64,000 nucleotides of DNA from Minisyncoccota bacterium (GTDB lineage Bacteria > Patescibacteriota > Microgenomatia > UBA1400 > UBA12028): NCBI GenBank assembly GCA_016211945.1, contig JACRHV010000004.1, positions 66,649 through 130,648 on the forward strand, read 5' to 3'. The notes under the pieces are model-generated. The model had not been told where the DNA came from. It made no database searches and was given only the letters and a program-made list of their open reading frames with translations. The translations under genes were made by a program, and so were the position numbers. Positions 36,758 to 57,649 of the stretch are shown here, piece after piece (position 1 is the stretch's first letter; each line of letters opens with the position of its first letter).

Positions 36758-36769
36758 ATCAGCAGTGTA

Positions 36770-37906: not shown

Positions 37907-37910
37907 ACGC

Positions 37911-40481: not shown

Positions 40482-42081
40482 ACCGTTTCCATTGTACTGC
40501 GATAAAACCTACGAGAATAAAGGCGAAAAGCGTGATGCTGTTTCCAACAATACGCGCTGGTGTGTATTGTGTAAATCGCGTGGAAATATTGTGTGTACCA
40601 GCAGAAACATAAAATGACAGTAATCCCTCGGTGTCTTTGTACGTGTATGGAACTTTCTTCCCGTCAACCCTCGTTTCCCAACCTGCAAAATATGCCGTTG
40701 GTTCTGTAATGCGTTGATCTCTGTCAAGTTTTACGGTATAGACATGCTCTGATCCATTCCACATTTTTCTCTCAAGGATCTCGCCTTGCTGTATATGCGG
40801 TTGCTGATCGCTCAACATTCCCGATTGATACGTTAATGTTCTTGGACGATTTTCGTCTACAGTTGTTGATGTTTCCGCGAATGTTTTGTAGTACAGATCG
40901 TCGTGATGAATATACGAATCAATTTTTCTTTGAGATACTCGAATAAGTGAGAAAAGAAGACAAAGAAGAAGCAATGTTCGAGATATTTTTCCCACGTGTG
41001 CATATGTGTACGCGACAAGCATTGACGACACTATTGTCAATGGCCCCAGTAATCTCCATGGAAACTGGATGTACTGCATAAATGGAATAGCGGACCAGAG
41101 TGGCATACTTATGGGCAACATGAATAAAAGAAGGAACACCGTTCCAACAATTAATGCAATATATTCTTTTTTTCTTTTTGCATAGATGCAATACCAAATG
41201 GAAAGTACAAGCGAACAAAAAGATATTATTCCTAACGAAAAAGATAGGGTATCTACCGGTCCCGGAAAGGAGAATCCCCATTGCCACGGGGAGGAAAGAA
41301 CTTGGCTAAAAGTGGGAGCATGTTCTGCGTATGCTCGAGAAAGGTTGACCTGATCTAAGGTAACGAGTGATTTTTCAACTAGTGCTGGAATCCAAAAAAA
41401 TGAAGAGGCCGCCAATCCAGCCAAAATAGGAAAATAAAGGCCGTATTTCTTTGTGTGCAATACGTGTGAATATATGGAAATAAGAACACACGGAATGATG
41501 AGCATTGCAATGATGTTGTGGGCAAGTGCGAGAAACAACACTCCGAAAAAAAGAACGAAAAACATTCCTTTTGACTGTCTTTTCTTCCATTTGTGCATCG
41601 CATAGAAAATCCATGGCACTATAGCATACGCAAGTACTTCACCTACTGCCCCGCGAACATACAGGTTTGTAAAGACAAAAGGGGCAAGAAGATAACTTGC
41701 AACGCCAACGCCAGCTGAGATTGATGACACATGGTGCCTGAACCAAACATAGAGACCAATGACAGAGCTCACTATGGCAGTACTGAGTAAAATCTTCATC
41801 GTCCACTCAACTGAAAGTCCTATCGCCAAGAATGGCAGTGCGAGAATATTTGCCAAAGGATAATTATAGTTAAACACAGGATAACCGTATCCTGCCCAAA
41901 AGGTTGGAGCCCACCGTGGCGGAAACTGACCTTGTTTTACAGCCACAGCGTAGTTTGCGATACGCGCAAGATGGTTCACCCCATCATGTGTTTCCGGAAA
42001 ACCCGCGTTAAAGAGAAGTGGACGAAGCAATATAATCAAGAGAGATACTCCACCAAAAACCAGTACCATACGGCGCATCAT
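40462..42081 (-). CDS. polytopic membrane protein, putative GT-C-like glycosyltransferase
   Basis: About 540 aa with many helices. Early loop FPETHDGVNHLARIANYAVAV (D-G-x-x-H motif). Start placed at MMRRMVLVFGG, abutting the stop of the upstream GT4. Confidence 0.4.
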   Translation of the reverse strand: MMRRMVLVFGGVSLLIILLRPLLFNAGFPETHDGVNHLARIANYAVAVKQGQFPPRWAPTFWAGYGYPVFNYNYPLANILALPFLAIGLSVEWTMKILLSTAIVSSVIGLYVWFRHHVSSISAGVGVASYLLAPFVFTNLYVRGAVGEVLAYAIVPWIFYAMHKWKKRQSKGMFFVLFFGVLFLALAHNIIAMLIIPCVLISIYSHVLHTKKYGLYFPILAGLAASSFFWIPALVEKSLVTLDQVNLSRAYAEHAPTFSQVLSSPWQWGFSFPGPVDTLSFSLGIISFCSLVLSIWYCIYAKRKKEYIALIVGTVFLLLFMLPISMPLWSAIPFMQYIQFPWRLLGPLTIVSSMLVAYTYAHVGKISRTLLLLCLLFSLIRVSQRKIDSYIHHDDLYYKTFAETSTTVDENRPRTLTYQSGMLSDQQPHIQQGEILERKMWNGSEHVYTVKLDRDQRITEPTAYFAGWETRVDGKKVPYTYKDTEGLLSFYVSAGTHNISTRFTQYTPARIVGNSITLFAFILVGFIAVQWKRYEQILR

Positions 42082-43133
42082 CTCTCCACCACTTTCTCGT
42101 ATATTTTCGCTGTCTTTTCTGCTGTTTTTTCCCACCGGAAATGGTCAGCGTGTTTTTCCAACACTTTTCTGCCTATCATCGACTGTTTTCTTGATAACAC
42201 GTTTATCATTGCTCTCGCCATATCTTCACTGTCGTAGGGATTGCAATACTCCACAATAGTGCCTCCTATTTCCGGCAACGAAGAGGTGTTTGATGAAACA
42301 ACAGGGACCCCACATTGCAACGCGTCCAGAACCGAGAGGCCGAAGCCTTCATATAATGAAGGCTGTATGTACAGCGATGCCTGTGTGAAAATTGCCGCGA
42401 GGTCAGCTATAGGATCTTTTGGTACTTCTGTTAACAGGAGTACGCGCGAATCAACCTTGTTTTTCTGTATTGCTTCTTGGAGCGCAGCGCCTTCTGGAAT
42501 ATCAATGTTTTTTAGCGATCGACCCACCATCACAAGCGAATATTCATCCGGTAATTTTGAAAACGCTTCGATACATCGTGGGAGGTTTTTGTTGTAGTTG
42601 ATATCTCCAACATAGAGCACATACTTTTGCGGAAGTTTGTATTGAAGTGCAACTCGACGTACAACCTCCGAAGCTTGTCTTCTCATCCCTGGGTTACCAG
42701 CAAGGTACACAACATGAATTTTCTCTTTGGGCATCCCCAAGTACTTCATGATATCTTTCTTTGAACATTCGGAGTCTGTGATGATTGCTGATACTGTACG
42801 CAAACTCATAAGTTGAAGAAAAAATCGAATCATTCCTTTCACTCCAGGTTTATATCTCTGTGGGAAAATCAAAGGGATGACATCATGAATTGTCACAACA
42901 GTTTTCGCTTCTTTATGTAGGGGGAGTGTGTGAAAAAAAAGATCAAAATAAGGGTAGTGAACAACATCTATCTTGTGTTTCCTCCCACCCGCATACAGAT
43001 GGACCTGCATGCCAGATATTTTCTTGAGATGTTGAACGAGAAAATCTGTGTAAATCCCAACCCCGCGAAAGGCGTTAGCTTTGTGGAGATGTGAGATATC
43101 AATGCGTATATTCACAAGCCTATTGTAACGCAA
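42078..43133 (-). CDS. family 4 glycosyltransferase
   Basis: IQPSLYEGFGLSVLDALQCGVPVVSSNTSSLPEIGGTIVEYCNP. Confidence 0.8.
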   Translation of the reverse strand: MRYNRLVNIRIDISHLHKANAFRGVGIYTDFLVQHLKKISGMQVHLYAGGRKHKIDVVHYPYFDLFFHTLPLHKEAKTVVTIHDVIPLIFPQRYKPGVKGMIRFFLQLMSLRTVSAIITDSECSKKDIMKYLGMPKEKIHVVYLAGNPGMRRQASEVVRRVALQYKLPQKYVLYVGDINYNKNLPRCIEAFSKLPDEYSLVMVGRSLKNIDIPEGAALQEAIQKNKVDSRVLLLTEVPKDPIADLAAIFTQASLYIQPSLYEGFGLSVLDALQCGVPVVSSNTSSLPEIGGTIVEYCNPYDSEDMARAMINVLSRKQSMIGRKVLEKHADHFRWEKTAEKTAKIYEKVVER

Positions 43134-43824
43134 ACTTGATAATCAAGAGAAGATGGCGAAATCCATCACGAAATGTGTTGAGCTTCGAGTAAGACTTGTT
43201 GTGTCGTTGACCGTACGAGATCGGAACCTCGGTCATCTTCAATTTTTCTTGACTTGCGCGCATAAGCATCTCGGATGCAAACTCCATACCATAAGACTTG
43301 AGCTGGAGTTTTTCATACGCTGTTCTGCTCAACAACCGCATTCCACAATGTCCATCCCAAATATGCGTCCAAAAAAAGAGATTGAGAATGAGTGTGAGGA
43401 CAGGAACTCCGATATATCGATGAATGAAGGGCATTGCCAATGGATCAATATTTCCTTTTAATCTATTTCCACTTACTAAGTCATATCCTTCAATGAATTT
43501 TGCATAGAGGAGTGGAATCTCGCGAAAATCATAGGTATCATCGGAATCTCCCATCACGAGAATATCTCCCTTTGCTTTCTCAAAACCCTTCATAAGAGCA
43601 GCTCCATAACCGCGCTGTTTTACCTCGACGATACGTGCTCCCGCTTTCTTTGCTATCTCGACCGAATGATCGCGCGAACCATTATCAGCAATCACAACTT
43701 CACCGGAAAGGCCCGTTTTCTTTATACCTTCAAATGCTTTCTGTATGGAAGCTTGAAGCGTTTCCTCTTCATTAAGACATGGAAGAACGACCGAGATACT
43801 ATGCGCTTTGGTATTTCTTTGCAT
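43120..43824 (-). CDS. polyprenol-phosphate glycosyltransferase, GT2 (DPM1/ArnC-like)
   Basis: ISVVLPCLNEEETLQASIQKAF...VVIADNGSRDHSVEIA...GYGAALMKGF...LVMGDSDDTYD. Start chosen at MQRNTKAHS; the ORF-track start at 43893 is probably an extension. Confidence 0.65.
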   Translation of the reverse strand: MQRNTKAHSISVVLPCLNEEETLQASIQKAFEGIKKTGLSGEVVIADNGSRDHSVEIAKKAGARIVEVKQRGYGAALMKGFEKAKGDILVMGDSDDTYDFREIPLLYAKFIEGYDLVSGNRLKGNIDPLAMPFIHRYIGVPVLTLILNLFFWTHIWDGHCGMRLLSRTAYEKLQLKSYGMEFASEMLMRASQEKLKMTEVPISYGQRHNKSYSKLNTFRDGFRHLLLIIKFALQ

Positions 43825-45097
43825 GCAGATATGATGACATGATGAGAACGGTTGGTGCAAGATGCAAAGTAAGACGTGAAACGGCCGCCGCAATAAAACT
43901 CGCTTGCTCTTCTGGTGCGACGGTAAATATGATCATGTACATCACTAACTGCATCGCGAGACCTGCATAAATAATGTGGAGTGATTTTTCTGCACATATC
44001 TCTCTGAAACGTGTAAGTGATAGTGTAATGAAGAAGAAAAATAGGAGATTCCATTTCTGGAGATTGCGAAACTCCTCTCGAAACGCGTGAATGCTGTACA
44101 CCGCATACTCAACCCACGGTCTTGCGTATAGCTCTCCAAATTTAAAATATTGACTCGAATCAACGTGAATTGCCTGTATAAAAAACCTCCAAGGTAGGAG
44201 AAGAAATGTGCCAACCATTGTCATCCACAATCGTAAATGTGGATAGTAGATGAACAAAATAAATGATGTAACACCGGCAAACACCAATCCTTCACTTTTC
44301 ACCCAAGGTAGAGAAAACCATAAAATCTGAGCAAGTAATGGTCGTTTGTATAGCAAAGCAACTGCTCCCGCACACATATACGTACCAACAAGAATGTCTG
44401 CTGTTCCCACATATTCACCACCAACATGTTCTCGAAAAATAAAGAGTGAAATAAAAAGTACAATCCAAAAAATAGCCCTCCATCCTCCTATCTTTGTGTA
44501 TAGCCAACTCCCCATAGACCAAAGCAATGCGATGGTGAACCCAAACAACGCTCCCTTTGCAGCAACCTCATTTGGTGCTTGGGTTAATAGAAATGCATTC
44601 GCGCCTGTAAGTGGAAGGAGTAACGGGTATTCAGGATGATTAAATGGAACAAGCGCCTCCGCGCGCACAATATTTTCCGACCATAATGCCGACATCTTGG
44701 GAACCCAAAATGCAATTGAGTCCCATGTATACATCACGCGGGAAACTGAACGTGTAAAGAAGAATAATGAAAACACGATGATGATGCTCCAAAAGAAAAG
44801 ATGTTTAGCATTCCAATCAATGTTTGGCCTACGCCACCAGCATTTTCTGCTTAAATAAAGTCCAAGTACACCGAGCATAAAAAAGAAAGAGAAGGATAGT
44901 GAAAGTGAAACGCCAATTTGTGAAAAAAGAAACTGTCCAAAGGTTGTTCCCACCGCTCCCAAGAGAAACCAAAATGGGAAAGGATGAACCTCCTGGACCA
45001 TCTTTTTTTCAACTTTCTCGATAAAATATGCAATGAATGAACCAACTCCCAGATAGTTTATCCAGATGAGTAGGACTGGAATAAGGATTTCTCTCAT
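43799..45097 (-). CDS. polytopic membrane protein of unknown function (possibly a glycan polymerase or GT-C)
   Basis: 432 aa with 10 or more hydrophobic helices and no recognised motif. Confidence 0.4.
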   Translation of the reverse strand: MREILIPVLLIWINYLGVGSFIAYFIEKVEKKMVQEVHPFPFWFLLGAVGTTFGQFLFSQIGVSLSLSFSFFFMLGVLGLYLSRKCWWRRPNIDWNAKHLFFWSIIIVFSLFFFTRSVSRVMYTWDSIAFWVPKMSALWSENIVRAEALVPFNHPEYPLLLPLTGANAFLLTQAPNEVAAKGALFGFTIALLWSMGSWLYTKIGGWRAIFWIVLFISLFIFREHVGGEYVGTADILVGTYMCAGAVALLYKRPLLAQILWFSLPWVKSEGLVFAGVTSFILFIYYPHLRLWMTMVGTFLLLPWRFFIQAIHVDSSQYFKFGELYARPWVEYAVYSIHAFREEFRNLQKWNLLFFFFITLSLTRFREICAEKSLHIIYAGLAMQLVMYMIIFTVAPEEQASFIAAAVSRLTLHLAPTVLIMSSYLHAKKYQSA

Positions 45098-45600
45098 TTT
45101 CCCACCTCAGTCTGAATAAGATATTTATCACCACTTTGTCCAAGCACGCGAACCTGTTTTAAACTCGCGTAGGTAGACGTATTCACAACTGCGAGGGAAG
45201 GACTCTTTGGCAATGTTTCGCTTATGACTACAGAGGAAGGAAAGAGATACATCCGTGCATAGTGATACTCCCTAGCTGATACATTCAACAGATGCACAAC
45301 TTGTCCACGATGAACGAGCGGTCGAAACACCCGATAATAGGTGTTGTAATATGTGCCTGATTCATATGATATTTTTTGTTCAAATCGATCAAAAAGCGTT
45401 TTCTTTGTTTCCGCGTATAACTGCACCTCTGCTTGAAGATTGAATAGTGAAAGTATGACTGCGTAGAGTCCAAATGTTCCATAGAATATTCTTCTTATGA
45501 GATGAAATCTGTATTTTGTCATATATTCAAAAACCACAAAAACAAAAATTGAAACATAAAACCATCCAAGTAAAGGAAAAAGTGCGAGTAATTTATGCAT
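45094..45600 (-). CDS. membrane-anchored hypothetical protein
   Basis: 168 aa. Two N-terminal hydrophobic helices (LLALFPLLGWFYVSIFVFVVF, IFYGTFGLYAVILSLF) and a soluble C-terminal domain. ATGA-type overlaps on both sides. Confidence 0.35.
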   Translation of the reverse strand: MHKLLALFPLLGWFYVSIFVFVVFEYMTKYRFHLIRRIFYGTFGLYAVILSLFNLQAEVQLYAETKKTLFDRFEQKISYESGTYYNTYYRVFRPLVHRGQVVHLLNVSAREYHYARMYLFPSSVVISETLPKSPSLAVVNTSTYASLKQVRVLGQSGDKYLIQTEVGK

Positions 45601-46444
45601 GGATCATTTCCCAATATTTCATATATGCAAGCGGATAGTGTAATCCTGAAAAAAGGGCCCAGACGAACCCTGGAAAGCCATCCAATATCCCTTTATGTCG
45701 CAAGTATAGTTGTAGAAAAACCTGCACGGGTTTGATACACATGTAATAGATGGTCGCCCACAACGTGGTTTTGATGTCATTCTTCCTCATCTGTTCTGCT
45801 GTGAGTGAGGTGTATCGATTTGCGCGCATAAGATACCGAGAAAACGTGGGGTCTGCGTAATGGAGAAGATCTGCAGAAAGCCACGCAATCTTCCCATGTA
45901 CTTTCGGTTGTTCGTGAATATATTTACATGGCCAAGCTGTTGCATTTTTTTTTACGAAACGAATGACACCATCCGGGTATACACCTCCATGCCTCAACCA
46001 GCCTCCAAGAAAAAAATTTAATCGGGGAATAAAATATGCTGTTACCTCACCGGAATCACTTCCTATTTTTCCATCGCGTTCCTCGATACTGCGTTGATGC
46101 CGCTCAAAAAGGAGCTTCTTTTTATTACCGGTCATTTTAATAGACACGCCACGCATGACTTTTTTTATCTGATCTGCGAGTTCTTCACTCACTCTTTCAT
46201 CTGCGTCTAACTGCAAGATCCAGTCGCCTTTTGCCGCATCAAGCGCTTTTTGTTTGTTAATATGAAACATTGCAACTTTTTTTGCAGAGATAACTTTTGC
46301 TCCGTATAACCGCGCTATCTCGGCAGTTTTATCAGTACTTTCACCGTCGACCACGATAATCTCGTCCGCAATGTTTTTTACAGACTCCAAGCATTCGCCT
46401 AAATTTTTTTCTTCATTATAAACAGCCAGTGCGACTGAAAGCAT
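45593..46444 (-). CDS. family 2 glycosyltransferase (WaaE/KdtX-like subgroup)
   Basis: LSVALAVYNEEKNLGECLESVKNIADEIIVVDGESTDKT...LQLDADERVS...GILDGFPGFVWALFSGLHYPLAYMKYWE. Confidence 0.75.
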   Translation of the reverse strand: MLSVALAVYNEEKNLGECLESVKNIADEIIVVDGESTDKTAEIARLYGAKVISAKKVAMFHINKQKALDAAKGDWILQLDADERVSEELADQIKKVMRGVSIKMTGNKKKLLFERHQRSIEERDGKIGSDSGEVTAYFIPRLNFFLGGWLRHGGVYPDGVIRFVKKNATAWPCKYIHEQPKVHGKIAWLSADLLHYADPTFSRYLMRANRYTSLTAEQMRKNDIKTTLWATIYYMCIKPVQVFLQLYLRHKGILDGFPGFVWALFSGLHYPLAYMKYWEMIHA

Positions 46445-46462: not shown

Positions 46463-47962
46463 TCACTCGCGTACATCCTCAAGTATTTTTACGGTATATT
46501 TTTCCTTATTCTGTGCATCAATTTGAGCTGAAAATCGAAAATGTCCGAAAGACTTTACTTGTGATAACCCAAGGTTGTCGAGAGGATAATATTGAACGGA
46601 CGATCTAAAAATATCAGGATTTACTGCCAAATAAAAAAGCGGGTAAATATACGCGTAGTGTGTATCCCCATATACTACAACGTTCATATCTTGTGATCTC
46701 TGTTTCTCTACTTCCAATAATGCACGTTGAGTTCCCACCCCCCACTCAATTTGGGGATGTGTAGAAAATTCACAAAGATACAGACGCATATACAACGACA
46801 CTTCAATAAGAAGTATGCATGTCATGAGAAAAGCAAAAGTCTTGTTGTATGTGATAAGCCATCTCATTCCAATTGCCGCAAATATGACAAACATATACAG
46901 AAAAAAGAGCATGCGTGTAGCTTGCGGTGCGTCGATTGTGATGGCAGAGGCTAGGGGACTGATGAGAAGAGATCCGTACAACAATACTCGCTGCTTGTGT
47001 TGCGGATAGATTTTCCATGCAAAAGTTATGCCTATCGCAAACAACAGCACCAAGCTCCAAGACATATGTCCCCAACCCGGTGGTTGATGCCAAGGATTAC
47101 TTCCACCACCTTTCACTAAAAATTGCGGATCATATGATGAAAAATAATTGCGTGTGAGTGTGGGGATAACAAAAAATAATGGATTTGATAACACCCTTTG
47201 TATTGAGTATGTTTCGGAATTTGCTCGAGCTTGTCTTGACTGTTCCATGAGCTGTTGATTAGAAAAGATCGTGATATTCCCTTTTCCTTTTGTCGCGGGA
47301 AAAACAAGTGCAAATACAAGAATACCAATACCAACAAAAAGTAAAGGTTGAAGATAGATGCGTTTTTGTGCAAAAAAGAGGAGACCTACAATTCCCGGAA
47401 GTAATACAAGTGGCGCATTGTACGTGAGTAATGAAAGCATCATTGCAACAGTTGAAAGTACAATACAAATTCCTCTCTTATCTCCCGCCAAAGTAAGTGA
47501 GAAAACAAAAAAGAACAACGCAAGATTAGCTTCAAAACCAACGTGACTGTAATGAATGGCCCAAGGTGTTAGTGAGATGAAAAAAGCAGTAAGAAGCCCA
47601 AAAACCTTATCTTTCGTGATCTGTAACACAAGAAAATAACTTATGAGGATGAGAAGAATGCCCGCGATCAAAGAGGGTACTCGAACAACCCATTGATTCA
47701 ACCCAAAGATTGAGACAAACGGGATGAGTGAGTAAATGTATCCCGCCAATTTATAGTCACCAAAGGATCGAAAAACGATCGGCCATGATACTCCCCACTC
47801 ATCCATACCCGTTTTTAGTAGTGAATATGCGTTGTATCCCAAAGCCGCTTCATCACGATTCAGAGAACTGGGAATCATTCCAAATCCTAGAAGACGCAGA
47901 AAAATACCAACAAAACATATGATGAGAAGAATCCATGTTGTGTATTTGTGTATATATTTCAT
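46463..47962 (-). CDS. PMT_2/ArnT-like GT-C membrane glycosyltransferase (tandem paralog 1 of 4)
   Basis: 499 aa. Loop-1 motif SSLNRDEAALGYNAYSLLKTGMDEWG...SFGDYKLAGYIY and a later NPWHQPPGWG. Confidence 0.7.
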   Translation of the reverse strand: MKYIHKYTTWILLIICFVGIFLRLLGFGMIPSSLNRDEAALGYNAYSLLKTGMDEWGVSWPIVFRSFGDYKLAGYIYSLIPFVSIFGLNQWVVRVPSLIAGILLILISYFLVLQITKDKVFGLLTAFFISLTPWAIHYSHVGFEANLALFFFVFSLTLAGDKRGICIVLSTVAMMLSLLTYNAPLVLLPGIVGLLFFAQKRIYLQPLLFVGIGILVFALVFPATKGKGNITIFSNQQLMEQSRQARANSETYSIQRVLSNPLFFVIPTLTRNYFSSYDPQFLVKGGGSNPWHQPPGWGHMSWSLVLLFAIGITFAWKIYPQHKQRVLLYGSLLISPLASAITIDAPQATRMLFFLYMFVIFAAIGMRWLITYNKTFAFLMTCILLIEVSLYMRLYLCEFSTHPQIEWGVGTQRALLEVEKQRSQDMNVVVYGDTHYAYIYPLFYLAVNPDIFRSSVQYYPLDNLGLSQVKSFGHFRFSAQIDAQNKEKYTVKILEDVRE

Positions 47963-49563
47963 TTTCTTGTATCGGTATATCCTAGTGATTCATTTCCTTC
48001 AGAAGAAATGAGTGTTGGTTTACTAAATTCGTTCAAGTCGGCCATCTGCCCAATAATGAGGGTGTTCGGAACTGTGAATTCATTTTGTATTGGAAATCCA
48101 AATCCAACTTTTTCAAACGCAACTTTAGCATATCCTTTTTCCTCTGCGCGTTGAATTATGCGCATGTCGTAATTTCCGTAGAATACAATCCACAAAAACA
48201 GTCGTTCATCTGCTAAAACTCGTATATTTTTGTATTCTTTCTCGTGATCTCGTACATATATTGCCATCGCTTTTCTACTCGCAGACCATGCTTCTGCTGA
48301 TCGTTGTGGATAGTGCGAAAAATAATCATGGATAAAGAAGATAGCGTTTAATGACAGTCCACCGCTTATCACTGCTATAAAAACAAATAAATGTTTTTGG
48401 TATAACCAAAAGAAAAGTTCGTACGCTCCAAAACCAACAAGTGAAATGAGCGGGATTAATCCATTCAATGATCGGAGAGCGTGTGGCGTATCGTACGGAA
48501 CTGATGCCGGAAGCAGCGCCACAATAAACCAACAAAGCAGAAAAATTCCGACTTTCCTATATCTCTTTGCACACACATAGATACCCACAACAAGAAATGG
48601 AATGTATGAAAAATACAGAATGCCAACAACTCCCGTGCCATGCCGTAAATTCTTATCACCGGTAACAAAAAGATAGGCTGGGTTAAGGTGATCTCCAACA
48701 TGACCCATCAATGTTTTTCCCGCGTAATAGTATCGATGATGGATAACTCGGGAAAACAATGTATTGTTATCTGCATCACGAAGTTCATTTGACCGTATCA
48801 CTGGATATGTATCTGAAACAATGTTTTTCGTCGAGTATCGGAGTATTTCCATTGGTCGATAATGGGGTGAGCGGATCATAGGGATTAGTGTGAAGAAAAA
48901 TACGAACAATCCCAACATTAAAGTGAAGAGACTTTGTCTCCATGTTTTTTTTCTGAATGTGAGTACAAAAACCGCGATAAATAGTACAGGAAAAACGAAG
49001 CGAACGCTGAAGTATGAGTACGTCGCTACTCCACCCATCAAACCAGCAACAACACTCATCCAAGCCCTTTTTTGTATCGTGAAGGCACAAAGCACTGAAA
49101 CAAGTAACATCATTTGTCCTACATGCCCTTCAAAACCTGTTCTTGAAAAGAGAAGGCTCCATGGCGTGATTGCCAAAAGAAACGCCGTTGAGAGCGCAAT
49201 CACTTCCTTTCTCTTGTGTGACGAAAAGAGAAGGCATATGAGGTGATATACACAATACACAGAAATTACACCCGCAATTGCTGATGGAAGTCGAACGGCA
49301 AATTCTGTCGCACCAAAAAACTTTACTGTGAGACTGGCTAACCAAATGTAGACGGGAAGCTTAAAATCTCCATAGGAAGGAAAAATTGGCTGGTACCACG
49401 CATTTCCGTGAATATCGCGGCCCGTTTGCGCGATCGACTTTGCATCAACACCGATCGCAACCTCATCAATATACATGCTTGCGGGAACAGTCCCAAGTTT
49501 ATAGAGACGCAGTGCTGCAGCAACGACAAGAATGATGAGAAGAAGTATTGTGTTATTCTTCAT
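47959..49563 (-). CDS. PMT_2/ArnT-like GT-C membrane glycosyltransferase (tandem paralog 2 of 4)
   Basis: ASMYIDEVAIGVDAKSIAQTGRDIHGNAWYQPIFPSYGDFKLPVYIW and a later GDKNLRHGTG. Start placed at MKNNTILLL (4-nt overlap). Confidence 0.7.
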   Translation of the reverse strand: MKNNTILLLIILVVAAALRLYKLGTVPASMYIDEVAIGVDAKSIAQTGRDIHGNAWYQPIFPSYGDFKLPVYIWLASLTVKFFGATEFAVRLPSAIAGVISVYCVYHLICLLFSSHKRKEVIALSTAFLLAITPWSLLFSRTGFEGHVGQMMLLVSVLCAFTIQKRAWMSVVAGLMGGVATYSYFSVRFVFPVLFIAVFVLTFRKKTWRQSLFTLMLGLFVFFFTLIPMIRSPHYRPMEILRYSTKNIVSDTYPVIRSNELRDADNNTLFSRVIHHRYYYAGKTLMGHVGDHLNPAYLFVTGDKNLRHGTGVVGILYFSYIPFLVVGIYVCAKRYRKVGIFLLCWFIVALLPASVPYDTPHALRSLNGLIPLISLVGFGAYELFFWLYQKHLFVFIAVISGGLSLNAIFFIHDYFSHYPQRSAEAWSASRKAMAIYVRDHEKEYKNIRVLADERLFLWIVFYGNYDMRIIQRAEEKGYAKVAFEKVGFGFPIQNEFTVPNTLIIGQMADLNEFSKPTLISSEGNESLGYTDTRK

Positions 49564-51194
49564 TTCTGCTCCCAAATATCCCAAACTACAGAACCGTTAG
49601 GTAAGTAAATGGACGTTTTCAATATGCTCGTGGACGGTCGTTTTCCCGGACTTGAAGCGACAAGCATTCCTTTGTCCAAAGGAATGGCAACACCAAATCG
49701 GTACGAACCGACCTCGAGTAATTCCTGTTGATCCTTAACCGCAACACGATCGTGTTCCTGCACTTTTTTTGGATCATACGCAGTAAAAAAGAGGTAATAT
49801 ATTGATGGCCTTCCCTGTTCACGCGTGATAAAAACTTTTTGGTCGGGTTTTTTGTTTCTCTCCAATGCAGATATGAGCTCACGATACCCGAACTGCCAGT
49901 CGCGAGCCGATGCAGATGCGTAATGAGTGAAATAATAGTGAAGGTACATCGTGAGATCGAAAAGAATCCAAGTTGTTAAAACAAAAAAAAGAACACCTTT
50001 TAACATGACGTGCTTTATGTGTAAAACTCCTTCAAAGATTCTTATTCCTCCAATCGCTGACAGAAAGGCAAATGCCGGTGAGGAGATAAGAAAACGTAGC
50101 GTATGGGGCGAAACCGTTGTCAATGCAGCCGGAATACCTGCGAGGCCAATCCACATTAGGATGAGCCAATACTCCTTTTTCTTTTTTTCCATCATGACGT
50201 ACAATCCAACAAGTAATGTAAAAAACTCCCAATGATGAAGTACTCCAAATTCTTGTGTCCCGTGCCGCATATTGTCATCACCGTATAGAAAAAGAAAATC
50301 CGGTGAAAATTGCGCGAAATATTTTGAGGCAAAAAGGTGACCAAACACAATGACTCGATGATGCATAAGTTTTGATATAACTCCACCACCATCTTGATCC
50401 CGTAGTGTATTACTCTCAACGATCGGTTGGAGGAGGGAAAATATGCTCGTTTCAGTTGCACGTTGTGCAATGATAGGAGACCTCGCATTCCACAAGATGG
50501 GGACAAACATAACACACACGGTGCAGAACGCAACCACGCACGCCTTTCGATCTTTCCAGTACTCTTTGAACCATAAAAAACCGATTCCCATACCTAAAAG
50601 CGGCGCAACAATACGTGCAGAATGATATGTATATAAAGATAATCCCATGCTCACTGCAGCAAAAAGCAAAAACCACGGATGTTTTCTTGCCCTGACCATC
50701 GCCCATATACCAAGCACAATAAAAAAAGTTGCGAGATTTGTTTCAAACCCAACCCTTGATATCTGTATGCTCCAGGGTTGTACGGCATAGAACATTACCG
50801 CAAGTAGTCCAATGCGCTCATCCCATAATTCTTTTGCGAGAAAATACAAGACAATGACAATCCCTACTCCAGCAAGTATCGACGGCATGCGAACCGCGAG
50901 AACATCAAGGCCAAATACCTGAATAAAAGGAACTATCGTGTAAAAATAGAGAGAAGGTTTATAGTCGCCAAATGAGGGAAATGCGAGCAACGGAAATGCA
51001 TTCCCGTGGTAATCTTTCCCTGTTTTTAGAATTGAGTACGCATCGTAACCCAATGCAGCTTCTTCCCAGTATGGAGAAGGCGGAATCGTTGTCACTCGAT
51101 ACAGTCGCAAAAACAGCGCAAGTACAACAATACCAACAACAGCCCATCGATATATCCAAGCTCTTTTCTCTGTTTTCTTTTCCATTGTACTCAT
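49560..51194 (-). CDS. PMT_2/ArnT-like GT-C membrane glycosyltransferase (tandem paralog 3 of 4)
   Basis: PSPYWEEAALGYDAYSILKTGKDYHGNAFPLLAFPSFGDYKPSLYFY and a later GDDNMRHGTQ. Confidence 0.7.
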   Translation of the reverse strand: MSTMEKKTEKRAWIYRWAVVGIVVLALFLRLYRVTTIPPSPYWEEAALGYDAYSILKTGKDYHGNAFPLLAFPSFGDYKPSLYFYTIVPFIQVFGLDVLAVRMPSILAGVGIVIVLYFLAKELWDERIGLLAVMFYAVQPWSIQISRVGFETNLATFFIVLGIWAMVRARKHPWFLLFAAVSMGLSLYTYHSARIVAPLLGMGIGFLWFKEYWKDRKACVVAFCTVCVMFVPILWNARSPIIAQRATETSIFSLLQPIVESNTLRDQDGGGVISKLMHHRVIVFGHLFASKYFAQFSPDFLFLYGDDNMRHGTQEFGVLHHWEFFTLLVGLYVMMEKKKKEYWLILMWIGLAGIPAALTTVSPHTLRFLISSPAFAFLSAIGGIRIFEGVLHIKHVMLKGVLFFVLTTWILFDLTMYLHYYFTHYASASARDWQFGYRELISALERNKKPDQKVFITREQGRPSIYYLFFTAYDPKKVQEHDRVAVKDQQELLEVGSYRFGVAIPLDKGMLVASSPGKRPSTSILKTSIYLPNGSVVWDIWEQK

Positions 51195-51204
51195 CTCTTT
51201 TTTC

Positions 51205-52725
51205 CTAGAGTTGCACGATGCGGAACACCACCGACCCATCTGGGTAGTAGATTTCCTTCACGATGTGTTCTGCATTGGCCGGAATTTCCTGTGGTGTTCC
51301 GATAAGCAGCAGACTTTTTCTGTTCCTATCTTCATCCCATTTTATATCTCGAATTTCGTAGTTTGCCAACGCACCCTGATTGTATTGTATCGGGGTGAGT
51401 CGCTTGAAAAACACCATGTAGATGTATGGTTGACCGTATGCGCTTGTGAGAAGTACCTTCTCCACATCCTTCTCTTTTGACCGAGCGTACCGAATTGCCT
51501 GTTCGTATCCGTACTGAAAATCTTTTGCTGCCACGATAGTGTAGATGTGTACATACCAATATCCATATATCACTGTCTGCAACACGACGAGTATTATCGA
51601 AATATATACAAATATCTTTTTCTTTTTTTCCGTAAAATACTCATACCAAAACATCCAACCAAATGCCGCAATAATCTGAACCCACGGTACAATGCCGTGT
51701 ATTCTGTTGCTGTTTGGTACCTCATTGCTCAGTGTTGCAGGCAAAATGCCGATAAGTACGCACAGGAACAACCAAGAATATTTCCTGTATACCTTCTTTT
51801 TCCAAAAGGAGAATATTCCACTGATCACAAAAAGGAATTCGAGATATGAGAGGATGCCGAAAGTACCATTTCCGTGACGCAAAGAATCCGTCTTCCCAAA
51901 GAGGAGAAACACTGGGTCAAGGTGAGTGAGTACGTTCTTTGTAATAACACGTCCTATTTCCCCCGGAGACTTGAGATTGTTCTTCGTCGAGATTGCTGAT
52001 GTCATAGAAAATCGCTCCACCGCCTTCCCGTATATCATTTCCTTTGCAAGTGGAAAGAGGAGTAATGCGCTCACTATACAGGCGAGGAATACCCAAACTT
52101 TCTGCTTTTTGATTGATGAAAAACACCAAACTCCTAGGACTAAAAGCAATAAGGGAACAGCAATTTTTGTGCTGTGATACGCGTACAACGACATGACAAA
52201 GCTCACTCCTGACAAAAGATATAACCATGGAACGTCTGCTGCATACAACAATAGTGCAGTTCCAACTGATACAAGACTTACCGCGATTCCAGACTCAAAT
52301 CCGATACGAGCAAAGTGAATATTGAGTGGTGAGAGCGCGACAGTTATCATGGCAACCAAGGCGAACACCTCCTGTTTCATCATTTTTCGTGCGATACCAT
52401 AAGTAGCAACAACCGTAATCAAACTTGCTACTGCCATGGGGAATCGAACTGCAAATCCATTGAGACCGAGAAGCGATGTCGATACTGCATCCGCATAGAT
52501 AGCAACTGCTGCCTTGTAGTCTCCAAAAGACTTGAAGGTAATTGGCATTCTGTTTAACCATTCGTCACGGTGCACTGTTGCAATGCCGAACCCGTTATAT
52601 CCAATTGCAGCCTCGTCCCAACTGAGTCCGACCGGAATTGAACCCAACCATGAAAAGCGGAGTATGAAAGCTATGAAAAGAACCGTGAAAAAGACGCGAT
52701 ACTTTACCAAAGTCTTATATATCAT
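51205..52725 (-). CDS. PMT_2/ArnT-like GT-C membrane glycosyltransferase (tandem paralog 4 of 4)
   Basis: VGLSWDEAAIGYNGFGIATVHRDEWLNRMPITFKSFGDYKAAVAIY and a later GKTDSLRHGNG. Start placed at MIYKTLVK (ATGA overlap with the next gene). Confidence 0.7.
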   Translation of the reverse strand: MIYKTLVKYRVFFTVLFIAFILRFSWLGSIPVGLSWDEAAIGYNGFGIATVHRDEWLNRMPITFKSFGDYKAAVAIYADAVSTSLLGLNGFAVRFPMAVASLITVVATYGIARKMMKQEVFALVAMITVALSPLNIHFARIGFESGIAVSLVSVGTALLLYAADVPWLYLLSGVSFVMSLYAYHSTKIAVPLLLLVLGVWCFSSIKKQKVWVFLACIVSALLLFPLAKEMIYGKAVERFSMTSAISTKNNLKSPGEIGRVITKNVLTHLDPVFLLFGKTDSLRHGNGTFGILSYLEFLFVISGIFSFWKKKVYRKYSWLFLCVLIGILPATLSNEVPNSNRIHGIVPWVQIIAAFGWMFWYEYFTEKKKKIFVYISIILVVLQTVIYGYWYVHIYTIVAAKDFQYGYEQAIRYARSKEKDVEKVLLTSAYGQPYIYMVFFKRLTPIQYNQGALANYEIRDIKWDEDRNRKSLLLIGTPQEIPANAEHIVKEIYYPDGSVVFRIVQL

Positions 52726-53630
52726 GTGCGTACCTTTTTTATCACAGCACCATCGGAAAGAGACCACAGTGGTGACACTTTCTTTCGTTTTTCAACCACT
52801 TCATGCATTTGAAGTAATGCCTGGCAGAATCCTAAAATAATGCGTCCTCGCGATCGCCATCCTCCAACGATCAAATGATAGGGAAGCCAAAGAAGATGTG
52901 AAAGAAAGATTTGCGGATCAGTGACATTCTTCCACAAAAAAAGGAAGCTATTTTTGTATGACATCACGTCCATAACCTCTTTTCCAAAAACCGTGGAGTT
53001 TGTTGATTCGTGTCCATGTACGACGAAAGCTTTAGGCTCAAAGAGTACGAACCATCCATGCTTCCACGCGCGATAACTGATATCAATATCTTCGTAATAT
53101 GCAGGTCTGTAGAGATTATCCATACCACCGATCAGCTGCCAATACGATTTTCTCACCATCATGCTACCGCCAGTAGCCCACATGGTCCTACCGGGTTGAA
53201 AATTTTGTGCTCGATTATGCATAAACATACCTCGAGAAAAACGACCAGTGCTCTTCCCGCTTATTTGACCGGAAGGTGCGTGTTCTAAACATCCGACAGC
53301 AAATATGTCAATATCTTTAAAATGCGGAAGAAGGTATGCTTTTACGTTTGCATTGGGTGATACATCATTATTTAGGAGCAATATAAATTCGTTTTTTGCT
53401 TGTTCTATCCCATTATTGCATGTATCAGCGTACCTTTTGTTCTCGTTATTTTTCACTATTTTCACTCGAGGGTAATTCTTGCTCAAGTAACTCATTGAGT
53501 CATCGGTAGAGGCGTCGTCAACCACGATAATCTCATCATTTTTCTCGAGTGCTAAAATTACACTTGGCAAATGCTTCTCAAGTAAGTCTCGACCATTGAA
53601 GTTTGGTATCACGACACTGATGTTCATCAA
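52722..53630 (-). CDS. family 2 glycosyltransferase
   Basis: ISVVIPNFNGRDLLEKHLPSVI...IIVVDDASTDDS...LLNNDVSP. Confidence 0.8.
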   Translation of the reverse strand: MMNISVVIPNFNGRDLLEKHLPSVILALEKNDEIIVVDDASTDDSMSYLSKNYPRVKIVKNNENKRYADTCNNGIEQAKNEFILLLNNDVSPNANVKAYLLPHFKDIDIFAVGCLEHAPSGQISGKSTGRFSRGMFMHNRAQNFQPGRTMWATGGSMMVRKSYWQLIGGMDNLYRPAYYEDIDISYRAWKHGWFVLFEPKAFVVHGHESTNSTVFGKEVMDVMSYKNSFLFLWKNVTDPQIFLSHLLWLPYHLIVGGWRSRGRIILGFCQALLQMHEVVEKRKKVSPLWSLSDGAVIKKVRT

Positions 53631-54757
53631 ATCATCTCCTCAAGTGTCTTATGAAAAGTATCCTTATTAAACTGCATGGCCTTTTCCCGCGCCTCCTGGC
53701 GCATTTTGTTCGTCAAAACATGATTATTCATACATGTCAGACTGTACTTCACGATATCATCCTCTGTGTCGCAAAGAAATCCTTGGATCCCGTGATCAAT
53801 AATCTCCGGTGTACCCCCCTTGCCTATAACAATAGGTATTGCACCGGAAGACATAGCCTCAACAATAGAGATCCCAAAGTGCTCAACCTTCTTTGGCTCT
53901 TTTCCCGAGTCGATACCGAAACCAGCGGCATGCCAGTACAATGATGCGTGCGAATAATATTGACGTAAAACGTCGAATGATGCGTCATGGAGTATCTTGA
54001 TGGGATACCCCTTCGCCGCCGCTGCCACTTGCTGCGCATATTTTTGATTATCCTCTCCTGGATCTACCGTACCAATAAGCACGAGTCTCCATCCCTGTGC
54101 GACCTTCATATCGATGAGTGTTTTAAAGGTCTCAACTAAGATATCTTGTCTTTTACAGTGTAATCCTGATTTTTCTCCCGTAAAAAAACGGCCAACGGAA
54201 AGAATGATGTGTTCTTTTTTTGCTGGAACAAAAATCTCGTGATCAATAAAGGGGTAATGCACATATTGAATTGGAACCTTCCATGCATGCTCAACAACTT
54301 TTTTTGTAAAAATAGAGTTTGCGTTTCTAGTGCTCCATTGATGCAACTTTAATCTTTCTACCACTCCGCAAATGGGTGTGGTAAACGGGAATTGAATGTG
54401 AACAATATTTTTTCTCGCCCCAGAGAAAAAAAAGCTCCCGTCGGTGAGATAATACATGACGTCATAGGGAAGTGTTTCTCGAAAGATTTGCAGTGGATGA
54501 GATCGCACTCCCAGAGAGGTAAACTTAAAATGAACACGTGAAAGGTTCAAATGAAAAGCTTGTTCATATCTTTTTCGGAGAACATCTTGGTCGGGAATGG
54601 CAGAAAAAATTCTTTCCACTATATCACTGCGAACGAGAATAACAACGTCGTGGTGAATACTCGCACACTCAGCGACAGAAAAAATGTACCGCTCACCGCC
54701 TCCAAAATGCTCGGGAATATATGGGGAATAGATCCCTATACGTTTTCTTTTTGCCAT
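53627..54757 (-). CDS. family 4 glycosyltransferase
   Basis: KVEHFGISIVEAMSSGAIPIVIGKGGTPEIIDHGIQGFLC. Confidence 0.8.
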   Translation of the reverse strand: MAKRKRIGIYSPYIPEHFGGGERYIFSVAECASIHHDVVILVRSDIVERIFSAIPDQDVLRKRYEQAFHLNLSRVHFKFTSLGVRSHPLQIFRETLPYDVMYYLTDGSFFFSGARKNIVHIQFPFTTPICGVVERLKLHQWSTRNANSIFTKKVVEHAWKVPIQYVHYPFIDHEIFVPAKKEHIILSVGRFFTGEKSGLHCKRQDILVETFKTLIDMKVAQGWRLVLIGTVDPGEDNQKYAQQVAAAAKGYPIKILHDASFDVLRQYYSHASLYWHAAGFGIDSGKEPKKVEHFGISIVEAMSSGAIPIVIGKGGTPEIIDHGIQGFLCDTEDDIVKYSLTCMNNHVLTNKMRQEAREKAMQFNKDTFHKTLEEMI

Positions 54758-55560
54758 ACGCGGACAATATCCTTTTCAAGCTTTTCATACGTTTCACGCA
54801 GCGATGGGTTCTGTTGGAGTTCCCAAAGACGTTCATAGACCATAAATCTATTCATCGACTGCACCATCGCCTCGATAACTCCTTGCGTTCCGTCCCTGTA
54901 TGCTTTCAATGCAATCATGCGATAGAGAAAGTCCCAAATCACAACCTTCAGCAGGCGTAGAGCACTCATTTGAGGATGATGCGCATTGAAAAGCAGACGA
55001 GCCTCTATTTCCGTCCATTCGTACGATTTCTTTAGTCCATCGACCATGTTTCGATGTGTGAGATGTACGAGTGGTTCATGAAGGTCAGCAGTTGATCCCG
55101 TAATTTCTGCGTGCTCATGGACATCTCCCTCCCATTGTTTTATTGCTTGTGTCTGAAACAACCGCACAAGTTTGTCATACTGCCAGCCACCGTGCTGCAT
55201 CCACTTTCCATAATGGATATTATTTCTTGGTATTCTATACGCGGAGTGCGCTCCAACGCTGGATATGACCTGCTGAATTTCTTTCTTTAATGTGGGGGTT
55301 ACACGTTCATCGGCATCAATGTACAGCACCCACGAGGTCTTAACCTGTTTTAATCCAAGATTCCGCAACTCGGCAAGACCAAGACCTTGTGCGGAAACAA
55401 CGTTGGCACCTTGTCTTTCTGCAAGCTGCGATGTTCTGTCTTCGGACCCATTGTCAATCACAACAACAGCATGACACCATCGAACTGTGTCTATGCAGTT
55501 TGCAATCATGGATTCTTCATTTTTTGCGATGATAACAGCGGTAATCTTTTGTTCTGACAT
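54736..55560 (-). CDS. family 2 glycosyltransferase (WaaE-like subgroup)
   Basis: ITAVIIAKNEESMIANCIDTVRWCHAVVVIDNGSEDRT...YIDADERV. Start placed at MSEQKIT, which is preceded by GGAAGGAG. Confidence 0.75.
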   Translation of the reverse strand: MSEQKITAVIIAKNEESMIANCIDTVRWCHAVVVIDNGSEDRTSQLAERQGANVVSAQGLGLAELRNLGLKQVKTSWVLYIDADERVTPTLKKEIQQVISSVGAHSAYRIPRNNIHYGKWMQHGGWQYDKLVRLFQTQAIKQWEGDVHEHAEITGSTADLHEPLVHLTHRNMVDGLKKSYEWTEIEARLLFNAHHPQMSALRLLKVVIWDFLYRMIALKAYRDGTQGVIEAMVQSMNRFMVYERLWELQQNPSLRETYEKLEKDIVRVWQKENV

Positions 55561-55591
55561 AGACTCCTTCCCGTTTTCTCCATTGTACAGG

Positions 55592-57649
55592 TTATTTTCT
55601 CCCATGCAGACGGTCTTGTACAACAAGATAGAGATTCCACCATAATTCCCGCGGGTCTCGCAGACATGAAAGCGGAGATTTTTTGCAGTTTGTGACAAAT
55701 CGAATAGAAGGAAAATGCGTGGTTTCGTTGTCTATGATGAGATCTACCGCTGTACTTCCCGCCTGCTTCCCATCAATATCAATAAAATACTCTCCCTTCG
55801 ATGTTTCGGGTTGCTGAATCGTTATCTGTCCACAAATCTCTTTTTTGCATCTGATCATTGGATTCTGTTGCGCCATTGTGGATCGTCTTTGATCGTCTCT
55901 AAGATGTATTACGATACGAATAGGGTTTCTCCCCATCATTGCATAGGCCGTATCAAGTCTTATCGTGGACTGTTGCATGCTGATCGGATTTCTTTGTTCT
56001 TCTGGAGCATATGCCTGACGGTAGGTAACATCTTGTCCTCCATGGATGTTCTTTATCTCAGGAAAATACGTGACTCCCCGTTGTGTTTTTCGCTCACGCA
56101 GTATCTTTGAACCATCCTTCATCATCTCGAGAAGATCTCCATTAAGCACAGACAGTTTGGGTAGTTCGGGACCTTCAAACTCAAAATAGTCATTCGTAAA
56201 AAATATGTTCACTTCATTATTGTTCTCTGTTTCGTACGACAACGCGATCGAGTTCGAATCTCGCACACTTTTGATCTTGCCATTTTTCTGCGCCATGGGA
56301 AACACCAAAGCCGCGGTGTCTTGATAAAGATCATTCAATATCGCGTTTTTTTCTGTTCGTACCGGCGTTTTCTTCGTCATTTTCCACCATATCTTATCCC
56401 ACAGTTTTGTTGGGAGATATGCGGGTTGTTCAGTATTTCTAAATCGAGACCCATCCAAGACAAACGGCGTGATCCAGTACGCATTTGGGGTACTCACCGG
56501 CATCGTGGCGTAGGGATCTTCCAGTGCTGAACTATAGATACGAAGATCGGTGAGTTTTACCTGATGTCCTGTTCGAATCAGTCGCGCTCGATATGATGGT
56601 GTCGATATCCAAAATGCCTGATGTGTTACTCCATTACTTTCTGTCTCTCCTTCAGAAAATTGTATAAAGGGTTGTGCTAGTAATCGATGTTTTACTTCCT
56701 TTGCGTATGTTGTGATCGTGGGCTGCCAAACATCCGAATGCTCTTTCAGAATTTTTTCGATATATGCTAATTGACGTATGTACTCTCGCTGGACATCCGA
56801 TGGCATTGTGTTTTCCAAACCAATGACCGTGGCACCGTTCCCCTTCACTAGTGATTGGTCGACTAGATGGACAAAGTATTCAAAACCACGAGAAGCAAGT
56901 GTGTAGTCATTCGGTTGGGAGGTGGTACTGCTCGTTGTATCTCCATAGTTCAGTACTGGATCAGGAATGGTTTGTCGAATCATCACGAGTGGAAGTGTGT
57001 CTTTCCCCTGTGATGGAACAAGCGGCCATCGGGTACTTGGAAGGTATGGACCCTGGAAAGGTCCACCATACAAGGTATAACTATCGGTGCCCCATTGCTC
57101 GCGCGTCAGTTCGTGCACCTCTACTCCATACTGACTGGAAAGGTAGTTGAGCGACCACGCGTCGATCATCCATGCAACCGTTATCTTTGGAAAAACGGCA
57201 AACGTCTTCTTGTATTGAGTCATGTATGTATCAATAAGAGCTTTTCGATCCTTCACGGAATATCCCAATAAATACGCATTTTTTGCTTTATACCATCGAT
57301 CTTCTGGGCCTTCATAACGAACGTGTGCATCGACCGCTAAACTCGGAATAATCTCTAAAAATGCCGCTGCTTCTATTTCCTGAGATGGCAACTGCTGGTG
57401 TATCAGTGAAACCATTGCCTCGTTTTGCAACGCATCGTATCGAAACGCAAATGCGGCTTTCAAATGATGCTGGGTTATCGAGTCCACCTGCAATCGTAGA
57501 GCGTCAACAGATCCGGGATCACAGCACGATGCACCTCGAACCTGATTGATGATGAGAAGTGCGGATGAGATTTCTTGTGATTGTGCGCGCACATATTGCG
57601 GAAAAAATGAAAAGAAAAAGAGTATGAAAAAAAGAAAAAACCGAGTCAT
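55592..57649 (-). CDS. secreted or envelope protein of unknown function (685 aa) with an N-terminal signal peptide
   Basis: MTRFFLFFILFFFSFFPQYVRA|QSQE gives a Sec signal with an AXA-like cleavage site. The remainder is hydrophilic with an S/T-rich patch DTTSSTTSQPND and no recognised catalytic motif. Confidence 0.5.
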   Translation of the reverse strand: MTRFFLFFILFFFSFFPQYVRAQSQEISSALLIINQVRGASCCDPGSVDALRLQVDSITQHHLKAAFAFRYDALQNEAMVSLIHQQLPSQEIEAAAFLEIIPSLAVDAHVRYEGPEDRWYKAKNAYLLGYSVKDRKALIDTYMTQYKKTFAVFPKITVAWMIDAWSLNYLSSQYGVEVHELTREQWGTDSYTLYGGPFQGPYLPSTRWPLVPSQGKDTLPLVMIRQTIPDPVLNYGDTTSSTTSQPNDYTLASRGFEYFVHLVDQSLVKGNGATVIGLENTMPSDVQREYIRQLAYIEKILKEHSDVWQPTITTYAKEVKHRLLAQPFIQFSEGETESNGVTHQAFWISTPSYRARLIRTGHQVKLTDLRIYSSALEDPYATMPVSTPNAYWITPFVLDGSRFRNTEQPAYLPTKLWDKIWWKMTKKTPVRTEKNAILNDLYQDTAALVFPMAQKNGKIKSVRDSNSIALSYETENNNEVNIFFTNDYFEFEGPELPKLSVLNGDLLEMMKDGSKILRERKTQRGVTYFPEIKNIHGGQDVTYRQAYAPEEQRNPISMQQSTIRLDTAYAMMGRNPIRIVIHLRDDQRRSTMAQQNPMIRCKKEICGQITIQQPETSKGEYFIDIDGKQAGSTAVDLIIDNETTHFPSIRFVTNCKKSPLSCLRDPRELWWNLYLVVQDRLHGRK

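Follow-up and report, generated by a model that had tools for sequence, protein, structure and literature searches.

The window, the 64,000-nucleotide (64-kb) stretch of Minisyncoccota bacterium contig JACRHV010000004.1 analysed here, carries on its minus strand a run of four long consecutive open reading frames (ORFs) at 46463-52767. A first-pass annotation, made from the sequence alone, had placed these genes at 46463-52725, which matches exactly if the first of them is read from its ATG. They encode putative polytopic membrane glycosyltransferases and are named D, C, B, and A in order of transcription:

51205..52725, minus strand: gene D, 506 aa from the ATG at 52725 (the longest ORF starts at a GTG at 52767); predicted GT-C_A membrane glycosyltransferase, ortholog group D
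49560..51194, minus strand: gene C, 544 aa from the ATG at 51194 (the NCBI start for the identical protein P0001); predicted GT-C_A membrane glycosyltransferase, ortholog group C
47959..49563, minus strand: gene B, 534 aa from the ATG at 49563; predicted GT-C_A membrane glycosyltransferase, ortholog group B
46463..47962, minus strand: gene A, 499 aa; the most divergent paralog, with W for R in the R-H motif and a shorter C-terminal domain

The genes are tightly packed in one operon, as the annotation had proposed. Its further claim that they overlap by 4 nt, in the ATGA fashion, holds for C/B and B/A (and for the junction between the preceding GT2 gene and D) but not for D/C, where a 10-nt purine-rich spacer (GAAAAAAGAG) separates the genes. 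The gap between A and the next gene is 18 nt. A Candidatus Pacebacteria metagenome-assembled genome encodes proteins with exactly the sequences of C and A (100% identity), which NCBI names "glycosyltransferase family 39 protein."

The four proteins are mutually homologous over nearly their full length (25-30% identity, BLASTP E between 1e-31 and 1e-66), and their transmembrane (TM) parts match one another with E of 1e-62 to 1e-102 in hhalign. Their reading as paralogs of the GT-C (PMT_2/ArnT-like) class is supported; the Pfam matches to PMT_2 and PMT are weak (see following). The loop motif [DE]E-[AV]A-[IL]-G-x-[DN]-[AG] is found in all four, as had been noticed, and RHG occurs, also as noticed, in B, C, and D, with WHQ in A. 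The motif [FY]GDYK, ascribed to all four, is present in three, B having YGDFK instead. In each of the four ortholog groups defined below, the acidic dyad after TM1 is 96-100% conserved, and likewise the D and K of GDxK, the E of GFE, and the R of PHxxR. The dyad corresponds to residues 44-45 in C, at the start of the first juxtamembrane helix, and the conserved residues in D are D37 and E38, D69, K71, E144, R283, and R341. The active-site equivalents of the dyad are D55/E56 in ArnT and D77/E78 in Pmt1 (PMC7801869). All four groups hence have the acidic residues in the first extracytoplasmic loop after TM1 that are expected of GT-C_A enzymes. R-H is invariant in groups B, C, and D, and W-H is found at the same place in A, where residue 291 is Trp in 97% of the members. 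This is a family-wide change that may alter the contacts with the donor phosphate. Because the conserved residues of the dyad, GDxK, GFE, and PHxxR are retained, all four paralogs look catalytically competent from their sequences.

A scan of one genome per GTDB species gave 124 related places, of which 80 were kept. The relatives are all Patescibacteria as far as record titles can be trusted, taxonomic breadth being taken from labels only; the carriers are labelled Pacebacteria, Woesebacteria, Beckwithbacteria, Microgenomates, Cerribacteria, and Buchananbacteria. The organism labels of many GTDB-representative records look wrong, because the gene content of the records matches Patescibacteria loci: L006, L010, L011, L013, L068, L073, and others are labelled "uncultured Pseudomonadales," "Methylococcaceae," or "Limisphaerales." The family is large, with 2,570 representatives at 50% clustering (E <= 1e-30). 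Clustering of 326 GT-C ORFs from 83 loci produced four large groups, each single-copy per locus: C (83 loci), D (54), B (48), and A (46). Mean identity is 37-40% inside groups and 28-30% between them. A Buchananbacteria-labelled contig (L001/L002) shows the same gene order across about 14 genes, its flanking proteins being 48-77% identical to and collinear with those of the window. By BLASTP, the positional orthologs on this contig are 54% (D), 53% (C), 47% (B), and 45% (A) identical to the window proteins. If the four genes were recent tandem duplicates, one would expect them to be closer to each other than to homologs of other genomes, whereas the paralogs share 25-33% identity and the positional orthologs 45-54%.

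The block that recurs across loci, an operon of about 14 genes common to about 80 species-level genomes, is GT2-GT2-GT4-GT2-D-C-B-A-GT2-(…)-GT4-PTPS_related-400aa-GalE-like-GT2. D and C are neighbours in 68 of 82 loci, and in 28 of the 62 loci that have enough flank all four genes stand in an unbroken D-C-B-A row. Among the 35 loci bounded by both GT2 anchors, 19 contain all four groups at the clustering cut, 10 lack only core-group D, and 2 lack only core-group A. In most of these last 12, a D-like or A-like gene occupies the vacant position and is assigned to a neighbouring cluster. The junctions differ in tightness: A comes directly after B in 41 of 44 loci (overlapping it by 4 nt in 20 of them) and C directly after D in 37 of 53, whereas in 27 of 47 loci inserts or additional paralogs separate B from C. 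This variable slot at the C-B junction takes up inserts of 2-5 kb or additional GT-C paralogs, some of them encoded on the other strand, while D-C and B-A stay tight; it is seen in L016, L024, L028, L031, L038, L040, L042, L043, L048, and others. Since each gene resembles its positional orthologs far more than its paralogs, and many species have the same gene order, the duplications long predate the divergence of the carrier lineages, and the array is a conserved operon with one variable slot.

The tight pairs raise the question of whether D with C and B with A form two obligate heterodimers, like Pmt1-Pmt2 or EmbA-EmbB, and are not four independent sequential enzymes. B and A are jointly absent from four anchor-bounded loci that contain only D and C, and the structural relatives of the family include heteromeric GT-C enzymes (Pmt1-Pmt2, 6p25; EmbA-EmbB, 7bvf). 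However, consecutive steps of a pathway would also give tight gene pairs, and all four proteins have full catalytic motifs, none looking purely structural. On balance we regard obligate pairing as quite improbable.

The first-pass annotation had instead read the array as a local duplication followed by divergence, with glycan diversification or phase-variable surface decoration as a plausible function; the model is taken here as one of recent tandem duplication. The paralogs are indeed adjacent, and in some lineages extra ones lie between C and B, but the orthologs are closer than the neighbours and the D-C-B-A order recurs in dozens of species. Selection was assessed with the close relative L083 (83-88% identical), because at 25-30% identity the synonymous sites of the paralogs are saturated and comparisons between them had to be set aside. 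D has a ratio of nonsynonymous to synonymous substitution rates (dN/dS) of 0.086, C one of 0.106, and B, over its 481 available codons, one of 0.105. The C-terminal parts, which had been described as divergent, have ratios of 0.03-0.115, comparable to the whole genes and with no rise. Selection is purifying throughout. Tandem Repeats Finder reports only chance-level two-copy repeats, and the longest homopolymers are A8/T8 runs in coding sequence, encoding Lys/Phe. The array thus lacks the simple-sequence repeats of phase-variable loci, although no search was aimed at inverted repeats. Matches to promoter and terminator consensus sequences are no more frequent than in shuffled sequence, or rarer, and are uninformative. 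With dN/dS of about 0.1, no repeats beyond A8/T8, and single-copy orthologs at each locus, a recently duplicated, diversifying array is highly improbable. The related suggestion that the divergence of the four reflects different acceptor or linkage specificities is plausible and is retained.

The annotation had also described C-terminal regions of 150-200 aa that differ from one another. In AlphaFold2 models the TM part closes with a helix whose end is near residue 428 in C (544 aa) and near residue 401 in A (499 aa), leaving an extracytoplasmic domain of 98-118 aa. This is a small alpha/beta domain with the same order of secondary-structure elements in C and A (the model of A, whose fold order is as in C, has a predicted local distance difference test score of 92.7). 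Profile-profile comparison (hhalign) finds the domains homologous in all six pairs, with probabilities of 93-99.5%:

C-D: probability 99.5%, E 7e-23, 107 aligned columns
B-C: probability 99.2%, E 6e-20, 109 aligned columns
B-D: probability 99.0%, E 6e-18, 104 aligned columns
A-C: probability 96.7%, E 3.3e-10, 78 aligned columns
A-B: probability 95.7%, E 1e-08, 51 aligned columns
A-D: probability 93.4%, E 2.4e-07, 51 aligned columns

Hence the C-terminal domains are neither as long as proposed nor simply different from each other, having common ancestry and a shared fold order. Judged by the refuting condition that the annotation had set for itself, this part of its proposal fails. They are, as stated, more divergent than the TM part in most pairs of window paralogs (14-22% against 27-32% identity), but not in C-D (33% against 29%). 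Among orthologs, the C-terminal domain evolves faster than the TM part in A and B (20-22% against 35-40% identity), which would be in line with a diversifying array, and does not in C and D.

The assignment of the four proteins to a known family is less straightforward than their relationship to each other. The Pfam gathering cut-offs are 26.1 bits for PMT_2 (PF13231) and 22.7 bits for PMT (PF02366). C (50.6) and B (47.9) pass the first, D (24.8) is below it, and A has no PMT_2 match; C (43.4) passes the second, A (20.5) is below it, and B and D have no match. The Pfam scan of the four reports no MIR or PMT_4TMC domain, so that the PMT domain of GT39 is recovered in C only and its PMT-type architecture in none of the four, and the NCBI name therefore rests on weak similarity. 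The profile of the C family matches PDB sequences only weakly: AglB at 4e-6 over the TM3-TM6 region and ArnT (5ezm) at E 0.02. The resemblance to ArnT, of GT83, is thus high in structure alone. The NCBIfam scan of C yields a single model, archaeo_STT3, whose score of 24 bits is below its cut-off of 450, and no ArnT model. The oligosaccharyltransferases (OSTs) of GT66 are not matched either, as WWDYG is absent and the profile of the C-terminal domain finds zero PDB chains at E <= 10. An OST-like C-terminal domain was considered and is unsupported by this profile. The GT-C_A fold itself is clear: the polytopic membrane domain superposes on ArnT, STT3, PMT, and ALG enzymes. The structural comparison gives 25.4 for ALG12, 25.2 for ArnT, 24.0 for STT3B, and 22.4 for AglB, followed by 21.3 for Pmt4, 19.8 for Pmt2, and 18.9 for ALG9, at 7-14% identity. 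Foldseek searches with the models of C and A place OST catalytic subunits at the top, then ArnT, DPY19, ALG12, and Pmt4. Judged from these models, the four proteins belong to the GT-C_A enzymes, and none of the characterised families stands out as their nearest relative.

Several of these matches could be taken to mean that the four enzymes glycosylate surface proteins (S-layer proteins or pilins), by PMT-like O-transfer or by OST-like transfer of a preassembled glycan, each with a separate protein target as in PMT1/2/4 or TMTC1-4. The GT39 name, the PMT score of C, the match of its family to AglB, and the presence of STT3, AglB, and PglB at the top of the Foldseek results all point this way. 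So does a motif after the last TM helix, DWQ[YF]G, which is conserved in C and lies at the place of the OST WWDYG. Yet this is not the canonical motif, and the other three keep it less well: D has DFQxG, B only WxQxG, and A keeps only the G. The C-terminal profile without a PDB match and the missing MIR and PMT_4TMC domains also argue against protein glycosylation, and the abundance of cytoplasmic GT2 and GT4 enzymes and of polyprenyl-phosphate sugar synthases (see following) fits stepwise glycan building better. We consider this reading, in which the four act as protein glycosyltransferases, unlikely.

The four genes lie inside a co-directional run that begins at about 59.4 kb and continues to about 30 kb. 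The upstream part of the operon (52722..58602; families by Pfam) contains:

57646-58602, minus strand: GT2
55592-57649, minus strand: secreted 685-aa protein carrying a signal or anchor segment at its N-terminus, between two GT2 genes
54736-55698, minus strand: GT2
53627-54757, minus strand: GT4
52722-53630, minus strand: GT2, directly before D

The order GT2-GT2-GT4-GT2 precedes D in most related loci. The downstream part (39279..46444; families by Pfam/NCBIfam) has orthologs that are collinear in L001/L002 and many other loci:

45593-46444, minus strand: GT2
45094-45600, minus strand: 168-aa protein with a single TM helix
43799-45097, minus strand: 432-aa polytopic protein
43120-43893, minus strand: AglJ/Dol-P-hexose-synthase-like GT2 (AglJ 1.9e-35, Dol-P-hexose transferase 2.8e-28)
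42078-43133, minus strand: GT4
40462-42135, minus strand: PTPS_related GT-C-like membrane protein, 557 aa
39279-40481, minus strand: 400-aa polytopic protein

The genes at the end of the operon (36098..39235) probably supply the donor, to judge from their sequence matches:

38336-39235, minus strand: GalE-like UDP-hexose 4-epimerase (NCBIfam GalE 226 bits, cut-off 262)
36770-37906, minus strand: LegC/PseC-like aminotransferase
36098-36757, minus strand: AglJ/PpgS-like polyprenyl-phosphate sugar synthase GT2 (NCBIfam AglJ 7e-29, PpgS 7e-24)

In distant loci, the epimerase and the last GT2 have syntenic counterparts of 53-65% identity. A third GT2 resembling AglJ, Dol-P-hexose, and PpgS enzymes lies at 63259-63978, adjoining another PMT_2 gene. 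All these AglJ/PpgS/Dol-P-hexose matches are below equivalog cut-offs and mean similarity at the family level only. Pfam, at E <= 1, gives zero matches for the 168-, 432-, 400-, and 685-aa proteins of the operon. The locus encodes a polyprenyl-phosphate sugar synthase-like GT2 together with GT-C enzymes, the association that characterises three-component glycosylation systems.

The window as a whole is devoted to glycan biosynthesis. It contains many GT2 and GT4 enzymes (at least 20 glycosyltransferases), three DegT-type aminotransferases, several short-chain dehydrogenase/reductase (SDR) epimerases or dehydratases, a Wzx-like flippase, an ABC-2 exporter, and a Wzy_C-like fragment. At least 14 polytopic membrane ORFs are found in the 64 kb, several of them further PMT_2-like proteins; scans of the window for tRNAs and Rfam families are empty. 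GT-C-like or polytopic glycan enzymes outside the array are encoded at 8408-9892, 59679-61166, 61167-62699, 31196-32965, 5368-7095, and 3-1646. Among them are two PMT_2 proteins, a third protein that BLASTP relates to these two (1e-12), one weak PMT_2 match (0.0018), and one ORF matching the hidden Markov models of the B and D families (6e-12 and 1e-9). The Wzy_C (O-antigen ligase-like) fragment is at the window edge. Between 18000 and 35000 the GC content is 31-35%, against 40-45% elsewhere. This stretch contains the Wzx-like flippase (26605-28002), DegT aminotransferases, GT4 and GT2 genes, and an AsnB-like amidotransferase (19857-21701), and it adjoins an ABC-2 exporter pair (16630-18154). 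It appears to be a separate glycan cassette that may have been exchanged.

We consider it fairly likely that the four genes encode GT-C_A transferases that form an ancient, fixed set without redundancy, at the core of a glycan-assembly operon of about 14-20 genes conserved across Patescibacteria. The four enzymes probably build one conserved surface glycoconjugate with polyprenyl-phosphate sugars provided by the neighbouring AglJ/DPM1-like GT2 enzymes. Stepwise transfer from such donors is suggested because the operon encodes the donor-supply half of the logic of a GT2 synthase, a flippase, and a GT-C enzyme, which is documented in other systems (PMC11127046). We infer from this the type of donor, the sequential action, and the nature of the acceptor. 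The cytoplasmic GT2 and GT4 enzymes of the operon would make a lipid-linked or glycolipid primer, while the GalE-like epimerase and the AglJ/DPM1-like GT2 enzymes would load a monosaccharide onto polyprenyl phosphate. Once this lipid has been flipped to the outer side of the membrane, each of the four transferases would add that sugar at a different position of one growing extracytoplasmic glycoconjugate, which may be a cell-wall polysaccharide, a lipoglycan, or the glycan of a surface protein (S-layer protein or pilin). Transfer by each enzyme would proceed via the [DE]E dyad of the first outer loop. The small C-terminal alpha/beta domain would help to select the acceptor, and a GT-C enzyme is known whose C-terminal domain acts as a carbohydrate-binding module (PMC11127046).

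Some observations weigh against this proposal. Ortholog groups A-D contain no characterised member and have no characterised donor, acceptor, or product. The OSTs, being the best Foldseek matches, are compatible with an en-bloc mechanism of transfer. No flippase was identified in the conserved block: its 168-aa protein, with a single TM helix, does not resemble GtrA, and the Wzx/MATE-like gene of the window is about 20 kb from the array. Among window ORFs of at least 150 aa no initiating phosphoglycosyl transferase was found (Bac_transf or MraY/WecA type), despite the number of glycosyltransferases. At the His of PHxxR, which is His in 94-95% of orthologs, the window proteins D and A have Asn (residue 338, about 51712) and Gln (residue 347, about 46922), respectively. 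Finally, with 4 of the 35 anchor-bounded loci having D and C only, the four enzymes are not universally required together.

The operon resembles several known systems, each in part; nearest to it in arrangement are embCAB and other mycobacterial GT-C enzymes, RgtA/B/C of Rhizobium, ALG3/9/12, and the PMT subfamilies. ArnT (GT83; PDB 5EZM/5F15), the undecaprenyl-phosphate-L-Ara4N:lipid A transferase, shares only 11% identity with the family (profile E 0.02). It is also one enzyme and not four fixed paralogs, and no lipid A pathway is in view in the host. The protein O-mannosyltransferases (GT39; Pmt1-Pmt2 6P25, Pmt4 9E61) are 12-13% identical. A and D score below the Pfam gathering cut-offs, and the context of the operon is glycan assembly and not the addition of a single mannose to protein. 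ALG3, ALG9, and ALG12, the lumenal mannosyltransferases of N-glycan synthesis, differ in being eukaryotic, in lacking a C-terminal soluble domain, in their 7-11% identity, and in not being clustered in operons. The three-component systems (GtrA/GtrB/Gtr-type, CsbB/GtcA/YfhO, GT136) also combine a polyprenyl-phosphate sugar synthase GT2 and a GT-C enzyme in one locus, with an auxiliary epimerase and a C-terminal acceptor-binding domain in the GT-C protein (PMC11127046). They differ from the present operon in having a small GtrA-like or MATE flippase, none of which was found in the conserved block, in having one GT-C protein where there are four to seven here, and in being variable side-chain modifiers and not a core operon.

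Two further sets of GT-C paralogs are comparable. The embCAB genes of mycobacteria are tandem GT-C paralogs in one operon, and the rgt genes of Rhizobium leguminosarum are adjacent, with dodecaprenyl-phosphate-galacturonic acid (GalA) as donor. Like the latter, D, C, B, and A would be ArnT-like paralogs using the same lipid-carried sugar at different acceptor positions, as do RgtA, RgtB, and RgtC. The acceptor of the Rgt enzymes is however the lipopolysaccharide core of a Gram-negative bacterium. RgtA and RgtB target the outer Kdo (PMC4402001). The enzymes of the EmbA-EmbB and EmbC2 complexes (7BVF, 7BVH) and Aft, Mpt, and PimE, which act in arabinogalactan and lipoarabinomannan synthesis, differ from one another in acceptor or linkage, take their sugar from polyprenyl phosphate on the outer side of the membrane, and may be compared with the proteins described here for the carbohydrate-binding C-terminal domains of that group. 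There too, a lipoglycan is made jointly by GT4 enzymes of the cytoplasm, a GT2 like Ppm1, and several GT-C enzymes. A more specific scheme is one in which D-C and B-A are obligate heteromers that, with the PTPS_related 557-aa, the 400-aa, and the 432-aa proteins of the operon, polymerise a lineage-defining envelope lipoglycan or wall polysaccharide outside the membrane, the extra paralogs of the C-B slot varying the polymer. We hold it to be speculative and rather improbable; if true, the operon would be a functional analogue of that for mycobacterial lipomannan/lipoarabinomannan (LM/LAM) or arabinogalactan.

Glycan operons with GT-C paralogs in tandem are known from elsewhere, and in this respect the locus is otherwise ordinary. 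Our limited literature search found no description of the D-C-B-A operon, and a survey of protein families of the Candidate Phyla Radiation (CPR) reports only that among the families enriched in Microgenomates many consist of membrane proteins without an assigned function (PMC6744442). As the four ortholog groups match characterised GT39, GT83, and GT66 proteins only remotely, their specificity is not readable from annotation. Much of bacterial diversity belongs to the Patescibacteria (CPR), and the chemistry of their envelope is essentially unknown; since the cells live attached to hosts, surface glycans are likely to be central to their lifestyle. The operon, with four fixed GT-C paralogs and two or three GT-C-like proteins, is a candidate pathway for a core envelope glycoconjugate of these bacteria, and it offers concrete targets for heterologous expression or glycomics.

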